Positions 1 to 6,869 of a stretch of 6,869 bases of DNA are shown piece by piece. Made by a program: the position numbers and the translations under genes. The notes under the pieces were generated by a model, which was given only the letters and a program-made list of their open reading frames with translations, was not told the origin of the DNA and did not search any database. Each line of letters begins with the position of its first letter. Position 1 is the stretch's first letter. The stretch covers positions 1 through 6,869 of IMG/VR virus record IMGVR_UViG_3300028591_002019; one strand, 5' to 3'. The DNA is from a virus.

Positions 1-213
1 ATCAAGAATTTCTTTTTCTCCTTTATATTTACTAAAAATATCAATTGTGATGGTAATTGCGTCCGTGCGGGTATCAAAAGCATCTGCTCTATTATGTCCG
101 CTTAAACGAGCCATCAGCCAAGGAAAATTCTCTACATAAGCCCCGTTATCAGTAATATTATAGCCTAATCCTCTAACCAGGCTACATAAATCAGTTTTTA
201 TTTTCTAAACCAT
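1..213 (-). CDS. Tail-completion / neck protein, DUF3168-like (N-terminal 71 codons; C-terminus lies beyond the window start). Carries an in-frame TAG at codon 3.
   Basis: ATG at 211..213 is preceded by SD GGAGGA (219..224) with a 5-nt spacer. The frame is open down to base 1 except for TAG at 205..207. Translation: MV[TAG]KIKTDLCSLVRGLGYNITDNGAYVENFPWLMARLSGHNRADAFDTRTDAITITIDIFSKYKGEKEILD. From memory, the pattern and the position after a gp10-like gene fit DUF3168/SPP1 gp17-type tail-completion proteins. The start overlaps the preceding ORF by 23 nt. Confidence 0.6.
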
Positions 214-367
214 AAGGGTCCTCCACTAATACATAATTATCTATATTATCAAAACGAGAAAGATACAAATACTTTGCGTATAAGTGTTCTCCTTCTTTTG
301 GAGTAGCATAATCATAAACAAACCCATTTGGGGCAATATAGGTTGTCATTTTTTTATTTAAAGCCAT
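191..367 (-). CDS. Hypothetical small protein, 58 aa
   Basis: ATG at 365..367 is preceded by SD GGAGG (375..379) with a 7-nt spacer. The stop is TGA at 191..193. Translation: MALNKKMTTYIAPNGFVYDYATPKEGEHLYAKYLYLSRFDNIDNYVLVEDPYGLENKN. It is below the length cutoff of the ORF track. I recognise no family. Confidence 0.5.
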   Translation of the reverse strand: MALNKKMTTYIAPNGFVYDYATPKEGEHLYAKYLYLSRFDNIDNYVLVEDPYGLENKN

Positions 368-380
368 TATACAACCTCCA

Positions 381-986
381 TTATGTTATTATAACCTAAA
401 TAGAATTACCGCCACCATAATCTCCTGAATAATTTGGAGTAGTATTAATATTAAACAAAGTATCAAAAATGCCATACAACATTACTAAAAGAGGAAATAA
501 TACCAAAAGGGCTAACATTCCTGCTGTCATTCCCAACAAGTCTTCCATAAATCCCCCTTCTTCACCTCCACCCAACGCTAATTGGGCTTCCGCAATAATT
601 GTTTCGCACATTTCTTCTAAAATTTCCTATGCTTCATTTACTGCTTCCTATGCTTCATCTATGAAGGCTTCCAGCCCTTCATTTAGGGCTGGTTCAAAAT
701 AAGGCTACGCAATCATCTTCCAAGTCCCATATTCAACATATTGCGCGTATTCTGCGGTAGCCTCTGCTTCACATTGAAATCCATCATTATCGGCCGAAAT
801 GGTGCTTTGTAAATATCCTGTATCTACTGGAACAAGAGAAGTGGCTATATCTTCAAAAACTTCGCAGAAAGCGTCGCACGCAGAAGAATAATCTACTTCT
901 ACTTCTGCGTGCTCGCCCATTACATCTGCGTCAAGATAAGTAGGTAATCCTAAATCACTTGGGGTGAATGAAACATATAGTCCCAT
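381..986 (-). CDS. HK97-gp10-family neck/tail-component protein with a hydrophobic C-terminal extension, 201 aa when four in-frame TAGs are read through
   Basis: ATG at 984..986 is preceded by AAGAGGTGA and a 6-nt spacer. Track ORFs 705..986 and 396..611 lie in the same frame and are joined by TAG codons at 705..707, 648..650 and 627..629. A fourth TAG at 396..398 is followed five codons later by TAA at 381..383. The motifs VPVDTGYLQSTI and YAQYVEYGTWKMIA[TAG]PYFEPAL match the HK97 gp10-like family signature as I recall it (vPvdTG.L..si ... YA.yVEfGT.kM.AQPf..PA). The C-terminal part contains one TM-like stretch, LLGMTAGMLALLVLFPLLVMLYGIF. Confidence 0.75.
624..658 (-). repeat. 14-nt direct repeat at 21-nt spacing (ttcctatgcttcat at 624..637 and 645..658); each copy carries an in-frame TAG
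   Basis: The two copies are exact matches read directly from the sequence. On the coding strand each copy reads ATGAAGCATAGGAA, so both encode the in-frame core EA[TAG]E (copy at 624..637 within NEA[TAG]EI, copy at 645..658 within DEA[TAG]EA). Confidence 0.7.
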
Positions 987-992
987 AGGATT

Positions 993-1223
993 TCACCTCT
1001 TTATTTCTTTTTTTAAATCATCTAAATCATTTTGTAATAAACTGGTTTGTTTTTCCAATTCAAAAGTGCGCTCAATTACTTGGTTATGTAAATTAACCTT
1101 TTTTTCTAACTGTTCTAATCTATATGCTATTAGTGCTTGATTTTTGTTATTAGAAAGAAAATTGCCAATTAATGAACCTATAAAGGTTATAATTGCTACA
1201 ATAATTGTTTCTGTTATCGCCAT
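993..1223 (-). CDS. Small membrane-anchored coiled-coil protein, 76 aa (BhlA/XhlA-like architecture; function uncertain)
   Basis: The preferred start is ATG 1221..1223 (MAITET...), preceded by GAGGT about 9 nt upstream. The track start at 1241 has no SD and overlaps the previous gene. The stop is TGA at 993..995. The N-terminal hydrophobic helix is TIIVAIITFIGSLIGNFL. It is followed by a charged heptad-like region, LEQLEKKVNLHNQVIERTFELEKQTSLLQNDLDDLKKEIKR. Confidence 0.65.
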   Translation of the reverse strand: MAITETIIVAIITFIGSLIGNFLSNNKNQALIAYRLEQLEKKVNLHNQVIERTFELEKQTSLLQNDLDDLKKEIKR

Positions 1224-1230
1224 ATCTTTA

Positions 1231-1767
1231 TTACCTCGCATTAAAACAATTTACATAATAACCAGCGGGGTCCAAAGATGTCCCCGTATTAGGCCCAATT
1301 ATATACCCACTAACATCACTTGTTAAAACAACAGAAAATTTTCCTGCGTCTTTTTTTGTAATACTAACAGTAATAGCAGGAGCATCAGAACTATTGCCGC
1401 CACGCTTTACCGTAGTAGTTCCATTGTCATAGGTAACAAAATAATATTTTATACTGCTGCTATTAGAAGGAATAGAAGTCAAGCAAGACATAAAAGTTAA
1501 ATAAAACTTTTCGGTAGGAGCATTATTAAGTGTCAAAGTAAGTGTTCTATTAATTTGTTTATAAATATAACCACCAGAAGCACCAACACCAGTGCCTCCA
1601 TAGCCCCAACCAGTCCAATAAGTATCTCTTTCAGTTCCTCCAACTGAAATACTATCTACCGCAGTAGCCATTTCTGCTACAGTCATTGTTCCACTTCCGC
1701 CGGTCTTTGTGCGGATAGCATTACCAAGAGCAGTTAAATCAGCAGTGTTTTCTAAACTATACGCCAT
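1231..1767 (-). CDS. Fibre-associated / putative distal receptor-binding protein, 178 aa
   Basis: ATG at 1765..1767 overlaps the upstream TAA (TAATG junction) and is preceded by AGGGGGGAG. The stop is TAA at 1231..1233. The track start at 1800 is a TTG lying inside the upstream fibre gene. The N-terminal motif LTALGNAIRTKTGGSGTMTVAEMATAV is one I recall from fibre-module proteins of Firmicutes phages. The remainder is Gly/Thr/Ser-rich and looks beta-type. Confidence 0.75.
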   Translation of the reverse strand: MAYSLENTADLTALGNAIRTKTGGSGTMTVAEMATAVDSISVGGTERDTYWTGWGYGGTGVGASGGYIYKQINRTLTLTLNNAPTEKFYLTFMSCLTSIPSNSSSIKYYFVTYDNGTTTVKRGGNSSDAPAITVSITKKDAGKFSVVLTSDVSGYIIGPNTGTSLDPAGYYVNCFNAR

Positions 1768-3347
1768 TAATAACTCCCCCCTACTGTAATTTCTTCCCAA
1801 GTGTAAGTAGCGTTATTTACGCCTTTAACACATTTTAGCATATAAGTGCCCGCAGTTTCAGGAGCAGCGGGTAATCCTGTAAGAGTAGAACTAATTTCAT
1901 TATTGGCATCAATATTAATACCTGCGCCCGCAGTATAAGTTGCGCCTCCGCCAGAGCCACTAATAACTCCATTGCTATCAATAGTAATCGTGCTACCATC
2001 TACCTTAACTCCGCCAAGAGTTGAAGTAGAAGCAACTGGAAGTTTATCTGGGGTTAAAATTGAACTATATTGAATTTGTCCTCGGGTTTGTGTGCCGTCT
2101 TCTTCTTCGTGGAAATAACGGATACTATTGCTGGAAAATTCAACCTAATCTCCCATATAATCTTCAAATAAGGGGTCTTCGCTCTCTTCCTCTTCGGTAG
2201 AAATCTGTCTTGTCTTATATTCTGTTAGTTGTAATCCATAAGTAGATAAAGTTGTATTACTGGGAGGACTTATAAAATTTTCAATAGTAATACCCTGACT
2301 TGAACTTATAGATACCTAATCAGCCTTATTATCTGGGTCTTCTGGATGAGTAGTATCAAATCCAAATAATTCTAAACTTCCTGCGGATAAAGAAGTGCCC
2401 GTTACTTCTGCGCCACTTTCAAACAAATCAATTGTTAAACTACCATCAGTAAGCATTGTTTGTCCCTATAACTAAAAAGTTTCTGGCATAGAAGAAGTAA
2501 GAGTAATACTATCAGGCTCTAAACCAGTATGGAGTGTTTCAGTATCAAAATTAACTCCACTACTTGCGACACTAATTTCATTATTCTAATCAATAGTAAT
2601 TCCACTACCAGCGGTATAGGTTGCTCCCCCAGAGGGAAGATTAGCCAAAGCAGTATCTACATAGTTTTCAGTAGCAACCTTACTACCTCCTGCGTTAGCA
2701 GTCGTTAAGCCATTTGCGTCGGTGCTATAACTATTACATCCTACATATAAATTACCGCGTAAATATTCATTACCATCCCAGTCTCTTGTAAAAATATTTT
2801 TACGCTAATTCGCCGCCGTGCCATTACCTACAATGTTCTAAAAAATCATATTGCTATCAATCTCATTACAAAATCCTTCTGCGTGCTAATACGCACTTTT
2901 TGCTACGGTTTTATAACCTTCGGCGTGAGAATAATTTCCTTCGGCATCTCCTGAACCCTCTGCGTGTGAATATTGTCCGTCTGCCGTAGAATTATTTGAA
3001 GCAAAAGAAAACATACCAATCGCACGGCCCTAATTAGTTCCTACTGCGTAATTTCCAATGTTAGATAAATTAAAATCAGTTGCGTAACCTAACATTACTG
3101 ATTTAGTGCCTGCGCCGGCTAACACTCTATCATTTAAATCCCAAGAAACAGTTCTATTATTTTCAGTTAATCCATTAGTAAAAGTATAAGAAGCATTGCT
3201 ACTTAATATACCATCATTATCAACTGTAATTGTTGAGTTATCAGGTTTTACTAAACCAAGAGTTGAAGAGGTAGCCTTGCCAGGAAGGCTACCTTTAATT
3301 AACTCAACTAATTTAGTAAGCCCGACATTATCTAAAAATTTTGCCAT
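1767..3347 (-). CDS. Large tail/neck fibre protein, 526 aa, containing nine in-frame TAG codons
   Basis: ATG at 3345..3347 is preceded by SD GGAGG (3357..3361). I translated the single frame by hand through to TAA at 1767..1769. It has no TAA or TGA in 527 codons. In-frame TAGs are at 3030, 2886, 2838, 2805, 2586, 2472, 2466, 2316 and 2145 (first base of the plus-strand cta). Fibre motifs occur on both sides of the TAGs: LGLVKPDNSTITVDNDGILS; YSHAEG-type repeats; NIVGNGTAAN[TAG]RKNIFTRDWDGNEYLRGNLYVG; GGATYTAGSGITID[TAG]NNEISV and GGGATYTAGAGINIDANNEISS; LGGVKVDGSTITIDSNGVISG; and the C-terminal PAAPETAGTYMLKCVKGVNNATYTWEEI. Confidence 0.85.
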
Positions 3348-3361
3348 ATGGGCTTACCTCC

Positions 3362-4060
3362 TTAAACAGCGCTTGCGTCATTCCAAATTGATGCGACTTC
3401 ACTATTGCTTAACGCAGAAATTGACATTTCTGTATCGCCAATAATCTCCCAAGCGTTATTTACATAAACATATTCAGTATAAACCTAATTAGTTCCTGTG
3501 GTTGCTTTTTCAACTAAATAAATCTTTGAAGAATTACCAGTTTGAGGCAATTCTCTAACAACCTCAAAACTGAATGAACTAATACCACTTAATGCGGTAG
3601 TAATATCTGCCATTGTAGCCACTTTATTACTGGAAGCATCATAAGCAGTATTAAATACTAATGCGTCTTGCTTACCAGCAATAGAAGGATTAATATAATC
3701 ATCAAAATATGTGTCTAAACCTATCGTTTCTCCAGGTTCAGCACTTGGAGATGGGTCGCCTAATTGTATTGACCAGAGTGGGACATACTCAACCCTTAAA
3801 TGGGGAGTAGTTCCCTCTTCACCATAGAAAATAATAGTGGTGTCATCCACAGGGATTTCGCTCCAATCAACAGTAGGGATATCAGCCATTGTTGCTACTT
3901 TATTAGTGCTTGCGTTATATGCGGTATTAAACACTAATGCGTCTTGTTTATCTCTTACATCAGAGGCGTTCGCTTTTTCTGCTAACGCAGTTTTTATAAG
4001 CCCACTATAATATAATAATTGTTCTCCGGTTAAAACTTTACTATAATCTAATTGTGCCAT
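3362..4060 (-). CDS. Fibre protein, 232 aa, with one in-frame TAG at codon 192
   Basis: ATG at 4058..4060 is preceded by SD AAGGAG (4071..4076). Track ORF 3485..4060 ends at TAG 3485..3487. The same frame continues for 40 more codons to TAA at 3362..3364, which sits just upstream of the SD of the next gene. The readthrough sequence is KIYLVEKATTGTN[TAG]VYTEYVYVNNAWEIIGDTEMSISALSNSEVASIWNDASAV. It contains an internal duplicated module, KQDALVFNTAY.AS.NKVATMADI. Confidence 0.85.
3602..3673 (-). repeat. Copy 2 of the diverged 72-nt intragenic repeat encoding KQDALVFNTAYDASSNKVATMADI
   Basis: It matches 3878..3949 at 22 of 24 amino acids, 276 nt apart in the same frame. This looks like module duplication within a fibre shaft. 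Confidence 0.8.
3878..3949 (-). repeat. Copy 1 of the diverged 72-nt intragenic repeat encoding KQDALVFNTAYNASTNKVATMADI
   Basis: See the partner copy at 3602..3673. Confidence 0.8.
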
Positions 4061-4080
4061 ATATTAAAATCTCCTTTTAT

Positions 4081-4485
4081 TTAAGAATTCCAAATAGCGA
4101 GAATATCACTATTTGTTAGATATTGAATATTAGATGAAATCGTTGAACCAACTAAACTAATCCCGTTTCCCGCAGTTAAAGTTTCTTGCTTTTCAGCCAA
4201 TCCTTCATCTACATATTCAATTGTGGCATATTCGCTTAAATCAATATCTCCCGCGCTAATATTCGTCGCAATCTCTTTAATATCTTCGGGAGTAAAATAA
4301 TCTACTCCTTTTTCAGGAGTTTTTCCTTTTAAAGAAGCCAACCATTCAGCCTGCGTTCCAGAGAAGCCATTATCAACAGCAATCTCATAAGCGGTTTTAC
4401 CGGCGGGACCACGGTAAGTAATATTACCTAATGAGAGTTGAACTTCTACGGGATTAATAGCATTTAAAACTTCAATACTTGCCAT
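4081..4485 (-). CDS. Fibre protein, 134 aa
   Basis: ATG at 4483..4485 overlaps the upstream TAA (TAATG junction) and is preceded by GGGGGGAG. The stop is TAA at 4081..4083. It contains GPAGKTAYEIAVDNGFSGTQAEWLASLKG, a motif I recall as very common in phage tail-fibre proteins (sAYEiAv.nGF.Gte.eWL.SLkG). Its C-terminus LTNSDILAIWNS resembles the C-terminus of the next fibre gene. Confidence 0.85.
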   Translation of the reverse strand: MASIEVLNAINPVEVQLSLGNITYRGPAGKTAYEIAVDNGFSGTQAEWLASLKGKTPEKGVDYFTPEDIKEIATNISAGDIDLSEYATIEYVDEGLAEKQETLTAGNGISLVGSTISSNIQYLTNSDILAIWNS

Positions 4486-4814
4486 TAGAATTTCACTCCC
4501 CCCAGAACTTTAAATTTCGCAGGACCTAATACAGTATCTACTCGGCCATCTGCCGTATCAACTTCTACATCATAATAATAATTTCCAACGGGAATATTAG
4601 TATCATTTGTAGTAAGTCTAATGACAGCCTTATTATTTACAAATTCATTAATAACCTTTTGGATACGAGGATTTGTTTTCTCTAATTCATCATTAACAGT
4701 AAAATAAACAGTATCTCCTTCGTCCAATAGGTAATCATCAAAAGAAATAACAAAATCTCCTGTGTCCTTCGCGATAATAGAAATTATTTGAGTGTCGTTA
4801 TCAAATGTTATCAT
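4485..4814 (-). CDS. Beta-rich structural protein, 109 aa (possible Ig-like/BppU_N-like fibre anchor; tentative)
   Basis: ATG at 4812..4814 is preceded by SD GAGGAGG. The stop is TAA at 4485..4487. The pattern GNYYYDVEVDTADGRVDTVLGPAKFKV resembles Ig-like decoration or baseplate-upper-protein N-domains. The function call is weak. Confidence 0.75.
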   Translation of the reverse strand: MITFDNDTQIISIIAKDTGDFVISFDDYLLDEGDTVYFTVNDELEKTNPRIQKVINEFVNNKAVIRLTTNDTNIPVGNYYYDVEVDTADGRVDTVLGPAKFKVLGGVKF

Positions 4815-5130
4815 TTAATTCAACCTCCTCAACAACCTCCATTAAAACGCTGAACCATTCCCTGCCTCTCTTTACCTGGGTCATAAGTTTATATACATCG
4901 CCATTAAAGATGTAGCGGGTATTCACATATTCATCTAATTTAATATCAGTAATAACATTAATTAATTTTTGAGTTGTAACGCCAAATTGCGTAATTTGTT
5001 CGCCCGTTGCGGTAATAGAGCAATGGGCCTTTATTTTTTCGTGAGGTTCTACTTGAACGCCAGAAGAACCTCCTTGTGTATCATCGGTAGGGATGACACG
5101 AATACGCTAAATTAAATCTCGTTTAATCAT
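4801..5130 (-). CDS. Head-closure / head-tail adaptor protein (Phage_H_T_join, SPP1 gp16-like), 109 aa, with an in-frame TAG at codon 8
   Basis: This gene is absent from the ORF track. ATG at 5128..5130 overlaps the upstream TGA (ATGA junction). TAG is at 5107..5109, and the frame then stays open to TGA at 4801..4803. Translation: MIKRDLI[TAG]RIRVIPTDDTQGGSSGVQVEPHEKIKAHCSITATGEQITQFGVTTQKLINVITDIKLDEYVNTRYIFNGDVYKLMTQVKRGREWFSVLMEVVEEVELNDNI. The pattern (RI.vI, DD..GG, a.i.p.sG.E, RI.fnG..Y.i) and the position after the gp6-like gene fit the family. No ATG downstream of the TAG could give a comparable product. Confidence 0.8.
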
Positions 5131-5420
5131 ATCATCTTCACCTTTCTATTCTTATTTAACATCCATCTAACTCTATCGCTGTAAAAACTATCATAAGTCA
5201 TTGAAACGCCAGAAGAAGATTGCTGTGTAGTGCCTTCACTCCCAATGCGGTTGTAGCGCTCAACCACCATACTGATAACCACAGCATCTAACTTTTTATC
5301 GTATTCAGGCAAATTACAATAAGTGTAAGCCTCTTCTTTACACAGAGAAATCAATGTATATAATAATTCATCTTCGGTGTCGTCTTGAATGTTTAGCAAA
5401 AGTTTTAATTTATTTAACAT
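5127..5420 (-). CDS. Head-tail connector protein (gp6-like, DNA-packaging/connector family), 97 aa
   Basis: ATG at 5418..5420 is preceded by SD AAGGAGAG (5426..5433). The stop is TGA at 5127..5129. The N-terminal pattern LKLLLNIQDDTEDELLYTLISLCKEEAYTYCN is typical of gp6-like connectors. The gene lies immediately downstream of the capsid gene. Confidence 0.8.
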   Translation of the reverse strand: MLNKLKLLLNIQDDTEDELLYTLISLCKEEAYTYCNLPEYDKKLDAVVISMVVERYNRIGSEGTTQQSSSGVSMTYDSFYSDRVRWMLNKNRKVKMI

Positions 5421-5437
5421 AATTTCTCTCCTTCGCT

Positions 5438-5478
5438 AAAAAAAATAAGGGCCTACCCACCGAAGTAGGCAGGCCCTT
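5438..5478 (-). terminator. Rho-independent terminator downstream of the major capsid gene
   Basis: The minus-strand RNA would be AAGGGCCUGCCUAC-UUCG-GUGGGUAGGCCCUU followed by A-UUUUUUUU. The stem arms are 5449..5460 and 5465..5476, extendable by two A-U pairs. The stem is 12 bp including two G-U wobbles, with a UUCG tetraloop. The wobbles would be C-A mismatches on the plus-strand transcript, so the hairpin is oriented for the minus strand. Confidence 0.8.
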
Positions 5479-5498
5479 TTATATTAAAACATTATCAA

Positions 5499-6299
5499 TT
5501 AGGGAGTTTCAGGCTCGTCGTCTTCAAGCATCTTAACAACACGGGTAGCGTCGGTAAGAGCAACAAGCATAACTTTACGAGCATAAACGGTATTCTTTCT
5601 ATGGTCGGCGTCTCTCTCTTGCTCGGTTTCTGCGCCTTTCTTTGTAAAGATAGTAACAGCCTCTTTGGTAGCAAGATAAGCAGTGCCCTTTGGAACAGCC
5701 TTACTTACATAAACAGGAACACCGCAAATGGAGCCAATATAACCAGTGCGTGCGAAATCTTCAACATACTTTAAGTCGTCGGCAAGTGCCTTACGAATAG
5801 TAGCCTTGATTTCAGGATTAATAAGAATGAATAAGCCCTTCTCGTCCTCATAAGGATACATAGCAATAGCATCAACGAAATCGCTGAAAGTCCAATCAAC
5901 GCCATATTTAACAATAGAAGCGCTATTCATTTCAGCAACAACCTTTTCAGTAAGGTCATTAGTCATACGCTGTGCTAAACCAGCAAGACCAGCATCAACA
6001 ACCATTGGGTCAGTCATTTCTTGCTCGTCGTAGTAAGCAAAACGACCCTGGGTAACACCAACTTCATAATCTTTATCACTGAAAGAAACAAGGATTTCAT
6101 CGGTATTACCTTCGCCCATTTTAAGGTCTTCTACATCGCCAGTAGAAGTATAAGTGTGGATAACCTTCTTCATACCAGGGTTCTCAACGAGGCTATCGTC
6201 GTGAGTAGCAAACTGGCTCATATCAAGATTAGTAATAAGTAAATCTTCAAGTTTGTTTTCTAAAACAAAATTTTCATAAATAGTATGATTTTGTGCCAT
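5499..6299 (-). CDS. Major capsid protein (HK97-fold, short approx. 270-aa type), 266 aa, with no in-frame TAG
   Basis: ATG at 6297..6299 is preceded by SD AAGGAG (6310..6315). The stop is TAA at 5499..5501. The gene lies between the scaffold and connector genes and is followed by a strong terminator. Size and sequence character fit small HK97-like capsid proteins; the family assignment is from memory only. Confidence 0.85.
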   Translation of the reverse strand: MAQNHTIYENFVLENKLEDLLITNLDMSQFATHDDSLVENPGMKKVIHTYTSTGDVEDLKMGEGNTDEILVSFSDKDYEVGVTQGRFAYYDEQEMTDPMVVDAGLAGLAQRMTNDLTEKVVAEMNSASIVKYGVDWTFSDFVDAIAMYPYEDEKGLFILINPEIKATIRKALADDLKYVEDFARTGYIGSICGVPVYVSKAVPKGTAYLATKEAVTIFTKKGAETEQERDADHRKNTVYARKVMLVALTDATRVVKMLEDDEPETP

Positions 6300-6328
6300 A
6301 ATAGCATTTCTCCTTTATAATAAAATTT

Positions 6329-6869
6329 TTAATTGTGAGAGAGTTGCTTATATAGTTCAGGATTAGTTCTATAAATTTCTGCCTGCTGTTGGATATTCAA
6401 CTTTTTAAACTCCTCACGCGTTAGGCCGGTTTGTCTTGCTGACCCGGTCTTGGGAGCAGGAGACGCAATGCGTTTTGCCACGGCATCTGCCACGGCTCCG
6501 TTAAACATCTTCTCAAAAGTGTTAATATTATTCATCATAGTTTCAGCGTCTTCTGCGACAATATAATCAATAAATTCAACGGGTAAATTACGATTTGATA
6601 AAACCTTCATCGCTTCAATTTTATTTTGAGCGATAGCGAAATCTCTTTCCCTCTATTCAAGTTCTTGTAATTTCTGCGTATATTCGTATTCTTTACGCTG
6701 GCTTTCGTCCATATTCCGCAGTTTCTCGGCTTCTGCCATTTTGTTCTCTAAATCTTTTTCCCATTTCTTCTACGCACTACTAACTCTGCGGTCGCCCTCT
6801 TTTTGAAGTAAGGCCTGGACTTCTTCTTCCGTATAAGTTTTCGGTGCGTTATCCCCTGTGGTTTCCACA
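6329..6869 (-). CDS. Capsid scaffolding protein (DUF4355-like), C-terminal 180 codons; the N-terminus lies beyond the window end. Carries two in-frame TAGs.
   Basis: Track ORF 6329..6610 extends upstream in the same frame to the window edge, with only TAG codons at 6653..6655 and 6770..6772 and no TAA or TGA. Translation: ...KTYTEEEVQALLQKEGDRRVSSA[TAG]KKWEKDLENKMAEAEKLRNMDESQRKEYEYTQKLQELE[TAG]RERDFAIAQNKIEAMKVLSNRNLP... It is a charged coiled-coil region typical of DUF4355 scaffolds (TqEevn.iv..RlaRe.kKwe). The stop is TAA at 6329..6331. Confidence 0.85.

Follow-up and report, generated by a model that had tools for sequence, protein, structure and literature searches.

TAG is a sense codon, most probably for glutamine, throughout the structural operon of a small siphovirus

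Introduction

The reading of the amber codon TAG as glutamine (Gln) in uncultivated gut phages is established, also by proteomics (Peters et al., PMC9523058), and the mechanism by which TAG is decoded in these code-15 phages is described in the literature as not fully understood. A suppressor tRNA was detected in only 40% of the TAG-recoded genomes surveyed by Borges et al. (bioRxiv 10.1101/2021.08.26.457843; Nat Microbiol 2022) and in 52% of the code-15 phages of Cook et al. (PMC11210395). Borges et al. also described the temperate TAG-recoded clades Topaz and Garnet, which have genomes of 22+/-3 kb and 34+/-5 kb, curated prophages of 23.7 and 24.4 kb, and integrases free of TAG that were proposed to be expressed in the standard-code state (bioRxiv 10.1101/2021.08.26.457843). 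The subject of the present work is a stretch of viral DNA of 6869 nt (IMG/VR record IMGVR_UViG_3300028591_002019, positions 1 to 6869, called the window below), in which the structural operon of a small siphovirus is represented by its head, neck and fibre genes; relatives of this phage have genomes of about 25-27 kb. In a first-pass annotation, made from the letters of the window alone, TAG was proposed to be a Gln codon across this operon (translation table 15), and a suppressor tRNA made by the phage was suggested to time the translation of the late genes.

Results

TAG is a sense codon in the operon

Every gene of the window (GC 37%) is on the minus strand. When TAA and TGA are taken as the only stops, 13 closely packed genes are obtained, and TAG is a sense codon in them, never a terminator. 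The 18 plus-strand CTA triplets listed in the first-pass annotation were all found where they had been placed, each in the frame of a long minus-strand open reading frame (ORF), and the corresponding 18 in-frame TAGs are distributed over 6 of the 13 genes (two in g1, nine in g8, four in g11 and one each in g4, g7 and g13). The 12 visible gene stops are TAA (8) or TGA (4) and never TAG, as had been noted, the thirteenth gene leaving the window. The 13 genes comprise 2254 codons, and no internal TAA or TGA occurs among them, although the off-frame density predicts about 170. TAG accounts for 25% of the off-frame stop triplets, so that the chance of 18 out of 18 interruptions being TAG is 0.25^18 = 1.4e-11, and the earlier argument from the improbability of a single stop type holds with this measured share.

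A comparison of genetic codes by coding density had been suggested as a check. The coding fraction of the window, determined by greedy ORF calling, was 0.70 with the standard code and reached 0.975 only when TAG was read as sense, while the control values with TGA or TAA as sense were 0.71 and 0.85, respectively. Calling with the standard code thus fragments the operon, as had been claimed. Shine-Dalgarno-like GGAG or AGGAG motifs could be observed 5' of most of the starts shown, in agreement with the earlier description of stops lying next to such a site and a start; for g9 and g10 no such motif was evident 5' of the starts tried. The recoding is uniform along the operon and is not limited to particular genes. 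The seven TAG-free genes contain 0-6 Gln codons apiece and TAG makes up 24% of the Gln-type codons (TAG, CAA and CAG), therefore the TAG-free state of these genes is not significant and can be ascribed to chance. The genes are the following (aa, amino acids).

g1: 6329..6868, minus strand, head scaffolding protein, N-terminus outside the window (194 aa at full length in contig L001); TAG at 6770 and 6653.
g2: 5499..6299, minus strand, major capsid protein (MCP), 266 aa, phrog_544 major head protein (E=5.7e-21); no TAG, 6 Gln codons.
g3: 5127..5420, minus strand, gp6-like head-tail connector, 97 aa, Pfam Phage_connect_1 (E=6.9e-16); no TAG.
g4: 4801..5130, minus strand, 109 aa, labelled head closure by gene position only; TAG at 5107 (codon 8).
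g5: 4485..4814, minus strand, 109 aa, weak similarity to a fibre-tail adaptor (phrog_1084, E=1.3e-5; Pfam Gp77 below threshold); no TAG.
g6: 4081..4485, minus strand, fibre-like protein, 134 aa, tail-fibre and tail-assembly PHROGs over residues 17-62; no TAG.
g7: 3362..4060, minus strand, fibre-like protein, 232 aa, phrog_24103 over residues 150-228, spanning the TAG; TAG at 3485 (codon 192).
g8: 1767..3347, minus strand, modular fibre, 526 aa; TAG at 3030, 2886, 2838, 2805, 2586, 2472, 2466, 2316 and 2145.
g9: 1231..1767, minus strand, 178 aa, corresponding to the database gene call L082 2703-3239; no TAG, 1 Gln codon.
g10: 993..1241, minus strand, holin-like protein, 76-82 aa (alternative start 1223), with a predicted membrane segment and coiled coil; no TAG.
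g11: 381..986, minus strand, HK97-gp10-like neck or tail-completion protein, 201 aa; TAG at 705, 648, 627 and 396.
g12: 191..367, minus strand, 58 aa; no Gln codons.
g13: 1..213, minus strand, N-terminal 71 of 135 aa, weak match to tail-completion gp17; TAG at 205 (codon 3).

Profile scans against Pfam and PHROGs were carried out on the window proteins with X at each TAG. In g1, Pfam DUF4355 (E=2.8e-26, residues 10-134) and phrog_172 (residues 11-177) both span TAG codons 33 and 72, and the same gene is called in the database for L001 (2776-3360). In g11, where Pfam HK97-gp10_like was found at E=3.3e-5, phrog_5 (Neck1/tail completion) covers residues 36-119 and spans TAG codons 94 and 113; the 445 homologues of this protein are each about 200 aa long, and the C-terminal VIIT beyond TAG codon 197 is conserved. 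Homologues of g8 align over all nine TAGs (e.g. P0258, residues 25-517). The earlier statement that protein motifs run across the TAGs could thus be confirmed for the neck protein, the scaffold and the fibres, the last through phrog_24103 and the g8 homologues. The Phage_H_T_join label given to g4 was not reproduced, since this protein had no hidden Markov model match in Pfam or PHROGs. Under the standard code only a GTG-started remnant of 41 aa is left of g4.

The same phage is represented by two overlapping public contigs. L001 (ERZ27256846:k141_775398, ENA) encodes an identical capsid protein, matches 2392 nt of the window at 100% identity and reaches 2.8 kb further upstream, into genes for the portal (2 TAGs), a 129-aa protein (2 TAGs) and a MuF-like protein (5 TAGs). 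L082, from the same sample, covers the remaining 4469 nt at 99.87% identity, with six single-nucleotide polymorphisms, none of them at a TAG, and continues into the genes for the major tail protein (2 TAGs) and for a tape-measure protein with a length of at least 1532 aa and 19 TAGs. Together with the window these contigs amount to about 15.3 kb, approx. 60% of the phage's own genome. The gene calls stored with L001 and L082 have exactly the boundaries derived here, TAG being read through, and the database protein of g11 (P0001) has Q at each TAG; the public pipeline therefore already handles the phage as code 15. Standard-code annotation breaks 6 of the 13 genes, and table 15 or prodigal-gv-style calling, already used for the public protein collection, is needed.

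The context of the TAGs is also that of a sense codon. The +4 base is T after 16% of the in-frame TAGs (667 dereplicated sites), compared with 18% after CAA/CAG and 52-53% after true TAA/TGA stops. In 12 of the 15 other recoded relatives that were scored, as well as in L001 and L082, the coding fraction increased from 0.50-0.66 to 0.85-0.96 with TAG as sense, and the gains in L004, L006 and L027 began at 0.72-0.78. The first-pass proposal of a sense TAG is upheld, since only TAG interrupts the frames, the alignments span the TAGs and the +4 context is sense-like.

In principle, the TAGs could have arisen by nonsense mutation during the decay of a prophage or as errors of sequencing or assembly, as the mere presence of stop codons would be explained in this way; nothing beyond it speaks for such an origin. 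A single stop type in 18 of 18 cases (p ~1e-11) does not agree with it, and neither does the finding of the same sites in the overlapping public contigs of another assembly. Moreover, 10 or 11 of about 40 TAGs are kept as TAG in relatives at 68-69% amino-acid identity, and many contigs of the clade have a size of about 25-27 kb, one of them with a terminal repeat (circular). The probability of decay or artefact is practically negligible.

TAG most probably encodes glutamine

As judged from the residues and codons found at homologous positions, TAG most probably encodes Gln, in a code-15-like reassignment. Codon 94 of g11, within an invariant AQPYF motif, is Q in 120 of 120 homologues, and in the DNA of nine relatives it is TAG (three), CAA (three), CAG (two) or CGG (one). 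In g8, Q was found in 70 of 118 homologues at codon 154, which falls on the conserved Q of a YQHxxG motif, and in 68 of 118 at codon 170. Eight of 13 homologues of g8 located on contigs of 60-269 kb also have Q at codon 154; these contigs are probably bacterial chromosomes, therefore the Q is probably not a translated TAG there. With TAG as Q, g11 reads ...KMIA-Q-PYFEPALNEGLEAFIDEA-Q-EAVNEA-Q-EILEEM... and g8 reads ...SAY-Q-HAEGF.... Codon 8 of g4 is CAA (four), CAG (three), ACA (two) or ACT (one) in ten relatives. The L002 homologue of g13 starts MVQKIKTELCSL, with Gln at the position of TAG codon 3, and the relatives have TAG, CAA, CAG, TCT or ACT at this codon; the L002 homologue of g10 has TAG where the window has Gln (RLEQLEKK).

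The in-frame TAGs of the relatives (n=86) are opposite a window Gln 25 times, a window TAG 14 times and K 7 times; residue K is about twice as common as Q, yet it is opposite fewer of these TAGs. In alignments of the window lineage with the two relatives nearest to it (68-69% amino-acid identity), TAG was opposite a Gln-type codon in 44 of 78 cases (56%), CAA in 80 of 144 (56%) and CAG in 28 of 44 (64%). TAG is matched by Gln-type codons as often as CAA is, which argues that TAG means Gln. The commonest non-TAG partner of TAG is CAA, two mutations off, and the equivalence is therefore at the amino-acid level. The codon-to-profile inference that had been recommended in the first-pass annotation was run as a Codetta-like column score; over 135 TAG columns, with standard-code relatives only, Q ranked first (-33 bits), followed by K (-119) and E (-139). 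The Gln assignment of that annotation is supported by g11 codon 94, g8 codon 154 and the CAA-like matching of 56%.

Some Clostridia decode pyrrolysine (Pyl). TAG might therefore encode another residue, such as Pyl in a Pyl-decoding host, or Lys. K was the runner-up in a first, crude TAG likelihood, 3.5 log units behind Q; two portal columns dominated this calculation, which was replaced by the per-column scoring and the CAA/CAG control. The conserved TAG columns are Gln, the column score places K far behind Q (-119 and -33), the relatives' TAGs are opposite Q 25 times as against 7 times for K, the exchange partner is CAA, and no tRNA was found in the searches described below. A residue other than Gln is accordingly very improbable.

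Relatives of the phage and their genomes

An MCP-based scan of IMG/VR yielded 80 loci. The loci that are TAG-recoded by their gain in coding density are L002-L007 and L026-L028, with MCP identities of 52-81%, while the standard code is used by the other relatives at 57-66% MCP identity and by every more distant one. Since the closest relatives are recoded and the others are not, the reassignment is recent within one phage family. An increase of the coding fraction with TGA as sense was observed in L015, L016 and L030 (about 61% MCP identity) and in L078 (46%), in case of L015 from 0.76 to 0.96; TGA recoding is not claimed for these loci, the residues opposite in-frame TGA being mixed (W, S, L, G, R, C).

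With the large terminase subunit TerL of L002, more than 100 database clusters were found at >=78% identity, many on contigs of 25-27 kb and some from cattle or ruminant assemblies (STEW19, XIEF21); the clade is abundant in ruminant and other gut metagenomes. Eight further relatives were fetched via TerL and all proved to be recoded, their coding fraction rising from 0.50-0.65 to 0.90-0.96. The recoded relatives' genomes are 91-97% coding.

The L002 contig (IMGVR_UViG_3300001517_000005) was rebuilt from L083 and L002 as a sequence of 25,535 nt with a direct terminal repeat of 145 nt, and L083+L002 therefore represents a complete circular genome. Of its 28 genes, 25 contain TAG, among them those of the terminase subunits, of the HNH endonuclease and of small putative regulators. 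The genome uses 96 TAG, 179 CAA and 31 CAG codons, and every gene ends with TAA or TGA. The gene order of the clade is tape measure (about 3000 aa), Dit, Tal, small genes, NUMOD4/HNH, TerS, TerL, portal and MuF, followed by scaffold, MCP, connector and fibres, holin-like gene, integrase (on the opposite strand and in some members only) and the gp10-like and tail genes. The tape-measure-like ORF of about 3000 aa (3035 aa in L109:1-5150, with a weak SH3_3 match), which also runs across the circular ends of L083+L002, takes up more than one third of the 25-kb genome and contains about 30 TAGs (about 31 in L002).

A tyrosine-integrase cassette with a repeat-rich phage attachment site (attP) is located on the opposite strand at the junction of the holin-like and gp10-like genes in L002 (14311-15362), L111 (19542-20855) and L112 (13706-14913), and between MuF and scaffold in L006. 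The syntenic g10/g11 junction has no such cassette in the window (986-993), in L082 or in L108. It seems to be a mobile element of the clade.

Concerning the hosts, megablast of the window against the INPHARED phages gave no match, and tblastn with the MCP detected only phages of Firmicutes as cultured relatives, at about 25% identity. One standard-code relative is a prophage in a 62.8-kb contig of a Ruminococcaceae metagenome-assembled genome (MAG). The GTDB matches of the recoded relatives were unusable for host assignment, as they are short contigs binned into three phyla, and a metagenome scan with the integrase for integrated copies returned only the L002 contig itself. The hosts are most likely Clostridia of the Oscillospiraceae type.

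TAG usage differs between gene families

The usage of TAG was pooled over 382 proteins of 23 recoded sequences, with P values that ignore relatedness. TAG has a share of 845 out of 3282 Gln-type codons (25.7%). It is depleted in the MCP (5/121, p=3e-10), the scaffold (25/234, p=8e-9) and the integrase (1/62, p=2e-7, six integrases; P=0.006 for the scarcity in the L002 integrase alone), and enriched in TerL (121/241, p=4e-16), HNH (38/84) and the MuF-like protein (61/153). These values suggest that TAG density tracks the required protein dose, and the avoidance of TAG in abundant proteins suggests a costly or limiting decoding. The scarcity of TAG in the integrase also agrees in direction with the proposal of Borges et al. 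that this gene is expressed in the standard-code state. The TAG-free state of the integrase could reflect the recent acquisition of a cassette that is variable in its presence and position.

Search for the decoder of TAG

No tRNA was detected by ARAGORN at default settings in the window, in 22 relatives, in the rest of the L002 genome or in the 8 further relatives. Rfam gave no family at the gathering threshold in ten sources (134 kb) and nothing tRNA-like at E<=10 in L083, L002, L004-L007 and L026. Relaxed ARAGORN runs (85% thresholds, intron and mitochondrial modes) produced scattered, non-syntenic calls only. Genes for release factors or aminoacyl-tRNA synthetases were not found in the clade genomes either. 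The scan for a CUA tRNA, a release factor or a synthetase had been proposed in the first-pass annotation; on relatives covering every genome region it found nothing, so for the phage the absence of a suppressor tRNA, which that annotation had named as an argument against its own model, is what was observed.

Three intergenic candidates were considered and rejected. An 88-nt sequence called as tRNA-Pyl(cta) by relaxed ARAGORN (L006:1711-1798, also L102:8640-8760) lies between the MuF gene and the TAG-free integrase, with a terminator 3' of it, and Infernal found no tRNA in it at E<=10. The 46 nt at its 3' end are the same as in the 3' half of a bacterial tRNA-Lys(CUU); this tRNA is seen intact in L100 and at the provirus ends of several IMG isolates. 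The 5' part of the 88-nt sequence still pairs with the 3' strand of the acceptor, and the anticodon arm is degenerate. We interpret it as a putative attP or decayed captured tRNA, and it was rejected as a suppressor and read as attP. The only PLSDB match to the attP core is the tRNA-Lys(CUU) of Vescimonas fastidiosa (Oscillospiraceae), and no CUA tRNA was found in the V. fastidiosa tRNA cluster that was checked. The spacer adjacent to the integrase has repeated arm-type motifs (attP). The 155-nt gap between TerL and portal proved to be the N-terminus of the portal with a TTG start. In the spacer of 200-230 nt located 3' of the HNH gene and 5' of the terS region, the candidate proved to be a long inverted repeat and not a tRNA.

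This last spacer is conserved in L111 (8250-8477), L109 (8240-8467), L112 (1378-1610) and L002 (3632-3830). It contains a promoter-like TGnTATAAT and an inverted repeat of about 25 bp, the loops of which share TCTTTT / GCCAT / TTCCTTTC, and the arms are wholly different between relatives and still complementary (compensatory changes). It could be a cos site, or a 5' untranslated region or other regulatory structure.

The results described above bear on the suggestion that the phage makes its own, perhaps non-canonical, amber-suppressor tRNA after infection, so that the TAG-containing late genes are translated late only. The same model is generally accepted in the case of crAss-like and Lak phages; according to Borges et al., non-canonical tRNAs may have escaped detection; and about 10 kb of the phage's own genome were not seen. 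However, ARAGORN at default settings revealed no tRNA in the 25.5-kb complete relative and the remaining recoded genomes, which together cover every genome region, Rfam gave none in the sources scanned with it, and the intergenic candidates have been explained. TAG is also contained in terminase, HNH and regulator-like genes, so that it does not separate early from late genes and no standard-code early module exists that could make the decoder. Thus the timing of late genes by a phage suppressor tRNA, as put forward in the first-pass annotation, did not find support, with 25 of 28 genes carrying TAG in the complete relative, and we consider a tRNA of the phage's own unlikely.

The host itself might read TAG as Gln, as an undescribed bacterial lineage in which the TAG-free integrase would be a recently acquired mobile cassette. 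The recoding of 25 of 28 genes in the complete relative would fit, a pattern which Borges et al. see in phages matching the code of their host, and so would the failure to find a decoder in the phage and the variable presence and place of the integrase cassette. Against this stand the relatives at 57-66% MCP identity that use the standard code, one of them as a prophage in a Ruminococcaceae MAG, from which the code change appears to be recent, and the depletion of TAG in capsid and scaffold, which suggests costly decoding. To our knowledge no bacterium with TAG as Gln has been found despite genome-wide screens such as that of Shulgina and Eddy 2021. The Topaz and Garnet prophages, furthermore, reside in standard-code hosts. 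A recoded host is, on balance, improbable.

In release factor 1 (RF1)-deficient E. coli, Gln is a major product of near-cognate reading of UAG. A dedicated tRNA might thus be dispensable, if a near-cognate tRNA-Gln read TAG while little RF1 was available or while RF1 was inhibited, for instance by a small factor from the phage or the host. The lack of a detectable tRNA and the depletion of TAG in the most abundant proteins, which fits inefficient decoding, are in line with this. The nine TAGs of g8, at least 19 in the partial tape-measure protein of L082 and about 31 in that of L002 would need an efficiency above 90% per codon, though; no read-through-promoting context was seen, the +4 bases being those of ordinary sense codons, and no candidate inhibitor was identified. 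The probability of this solution is likewise low.

Other features of the operon

The fibre-like block g5-g9 (1231-4814) lies between the head-closure and neck genes and not after the tail genes, and its products may be head or neck fibres. In relatives this place is occupied by modules of the collagen, YadA-head, head-fibre and Peptidase_G2 types, and the relatives of g8 itself carry YadA-head and head-fibre-type domains. The C-terminal ends of g6 and g7 are alike (...ILAIWNS and ...VASIWNDASAV). Internal repeats are present in g7 (78 nt, 3597-3674 and 3873-3950) and in g8 (1890-1949 and 2571-2630).

With about 200 aa, g11 exceeds the usual 110-130 aa of HK97-gp10-like proteins. The C-terminal third (381-600 of the window) forms an extension with a conserved linker rich in Gly and Glu, a hydrophobic segment that resembles a membrane span (LLGMTAGMLALLVLFPLLVMLYGIF) and the conserved C-terminal VIIT, all of them common to hundreds of homologues.

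Discussion

The explanation we favour, and hold to be highly likely as a whole, is a clade-wide reassignment of TAG to Gln with a decoder supplied from outside the phage. In this clade TAG has changed from stop to Gln over essentially the whole genome; it forms about a quarter of the Gln-type codons, no gene ends with it, and in evolution it is interchangeable with CAA and CAG. The decoder would not be made by the phage after infection and would already be in the cell; an origin outside the phage is proposed because neither a tRNA nor a release factor or synthetase was found and nearly all genes need TAG to be read through. Most plausibly it would be an amber-suppressor tRNA with the anticodon CUA, charged with Gln and derived from the host or from a co-resident element or phage. 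The avoidance of TAG in capsid and scaffold, the two proteins with the highest expression, and in the integrase, and its over-use in TerL, HNH and MuF-like genes, may mean that the decoder is limiting or conditional. In the members with an integrase, the standard-code state would favour lysogeny and the suppressing state lytic growth, as in the published idea.

Several observations weigh against this explanation. In absolute terms the Codetta-like score was negative, -0.24 bits per TAG column as compared with +1.6 for true Gln columns, and the TAGs therefore tend to occupy variable positions. Many TAG columns are variable, and from the window sites alone the Gln call comes from a few conserved columns. 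The external suppressor is pure inference, as the search yielded no decoder. A tRNA might lie in the approx. 10 kb of the phage's own genome beyond the 15.3 kb, though the syntenic relatives have none. The clade-level P values leave out the relatedness of the sequences. Finally, the window lineage (window, L082 and L108) is without the integrase cassette, and the lysogeny switch may not apply to it.

A more far-reaching and rather doubtful proposal is that the whole lytic programme is gated by a foreign amber suppressor, provided by the host under particular conditions or by a co-infecting or resident recoded phage, as the clade has neither decoding machinery nor standard-code early genes. The phage would then be a genetic-code-dependent element with the TAG count as a dosage rheostat; the number of TAGs per gene is 0-1 for the capsid, 9 for the fibre, 11 for the terminase and about 30 for the tape measure.

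Returning to the reassignment with an external decoder, the one aspect worth following up is what supplies the decoding of TAG to a fully recoded 25-kb phage that has no tRNA. The clade is a clean test case for what decodes TAG in the 48-60% of code-15 phages without a detectable suppressor tRNA, since its genomes are tiny, complete, about 95% coding, abundant in rumen data and tRNA-less, and their TAG use is inverse to the expected protein abundance.

Among the known systems, the phages that share the code of their host (code 4 in Mycoplasma and Spiroplasma, code 25 in Absconditabacteria) resemble the present one in that nearly every gene is recoded and no phage decoder is needed, while their codon is TGA and not TAG, and the code of their host is known. 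The crAss-like and Lak code-15 phages (Ivanova 2014; Yutin 2021; Peters 2022, PMC9523058) likewise have TAG as Gln in the structural genes and do not use it as a terminator. They have, however, genomes of 100-660 kb and infect Bacteroidota, as opposed to about 25 kb and probably Clostridia here. They usually encode a suppressor tRNA(CUA) and sometimes release factors, whereas no tRNA was found here, and they keep an early region compatible with the standard code, which makes a temporal switch plausible; there is no early standard-code module in the phages studied here.

The closest published match is that of the Topaz and Garnet clades, the comparison being made by their published description. 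Both groups have small siphovirus-type genomes (25-27 kb in the relatives), TAG as Gln in almost all genes, by which the Topaz and Garnet genomes are extremely broken up under the standard code, and an origin in animal guts. The integrases of Topaz and Garnet are free of TAG and those of the relatives have one TAG in 62 Gln-type codons. Integration takes place at a tRNA gene in Topaz and Garnet, and the attP of the relative is the 3' half of tRNA-Lys(CUU). The hosts of Topaz and Garnet are Oscillospiraceae (Topaz) or Prevotella, and the attP core of the relative matches Vescimonas, one of the Oscillospiraceae. In size, gene content, behaviour of the integrase, attachment site and host hints the family is compatible with the published description, a temperate lifestyle being a further feature in common. 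The attachment tRNA is different, Thr in Topaz and Met in Garnet as against Lys in the relative, and the window lineage, unlike these clades, has no integrase cassette at the syntenic site. Recoding of this kind is well established, and the phage adds a further case of the known TAG-recoded type.

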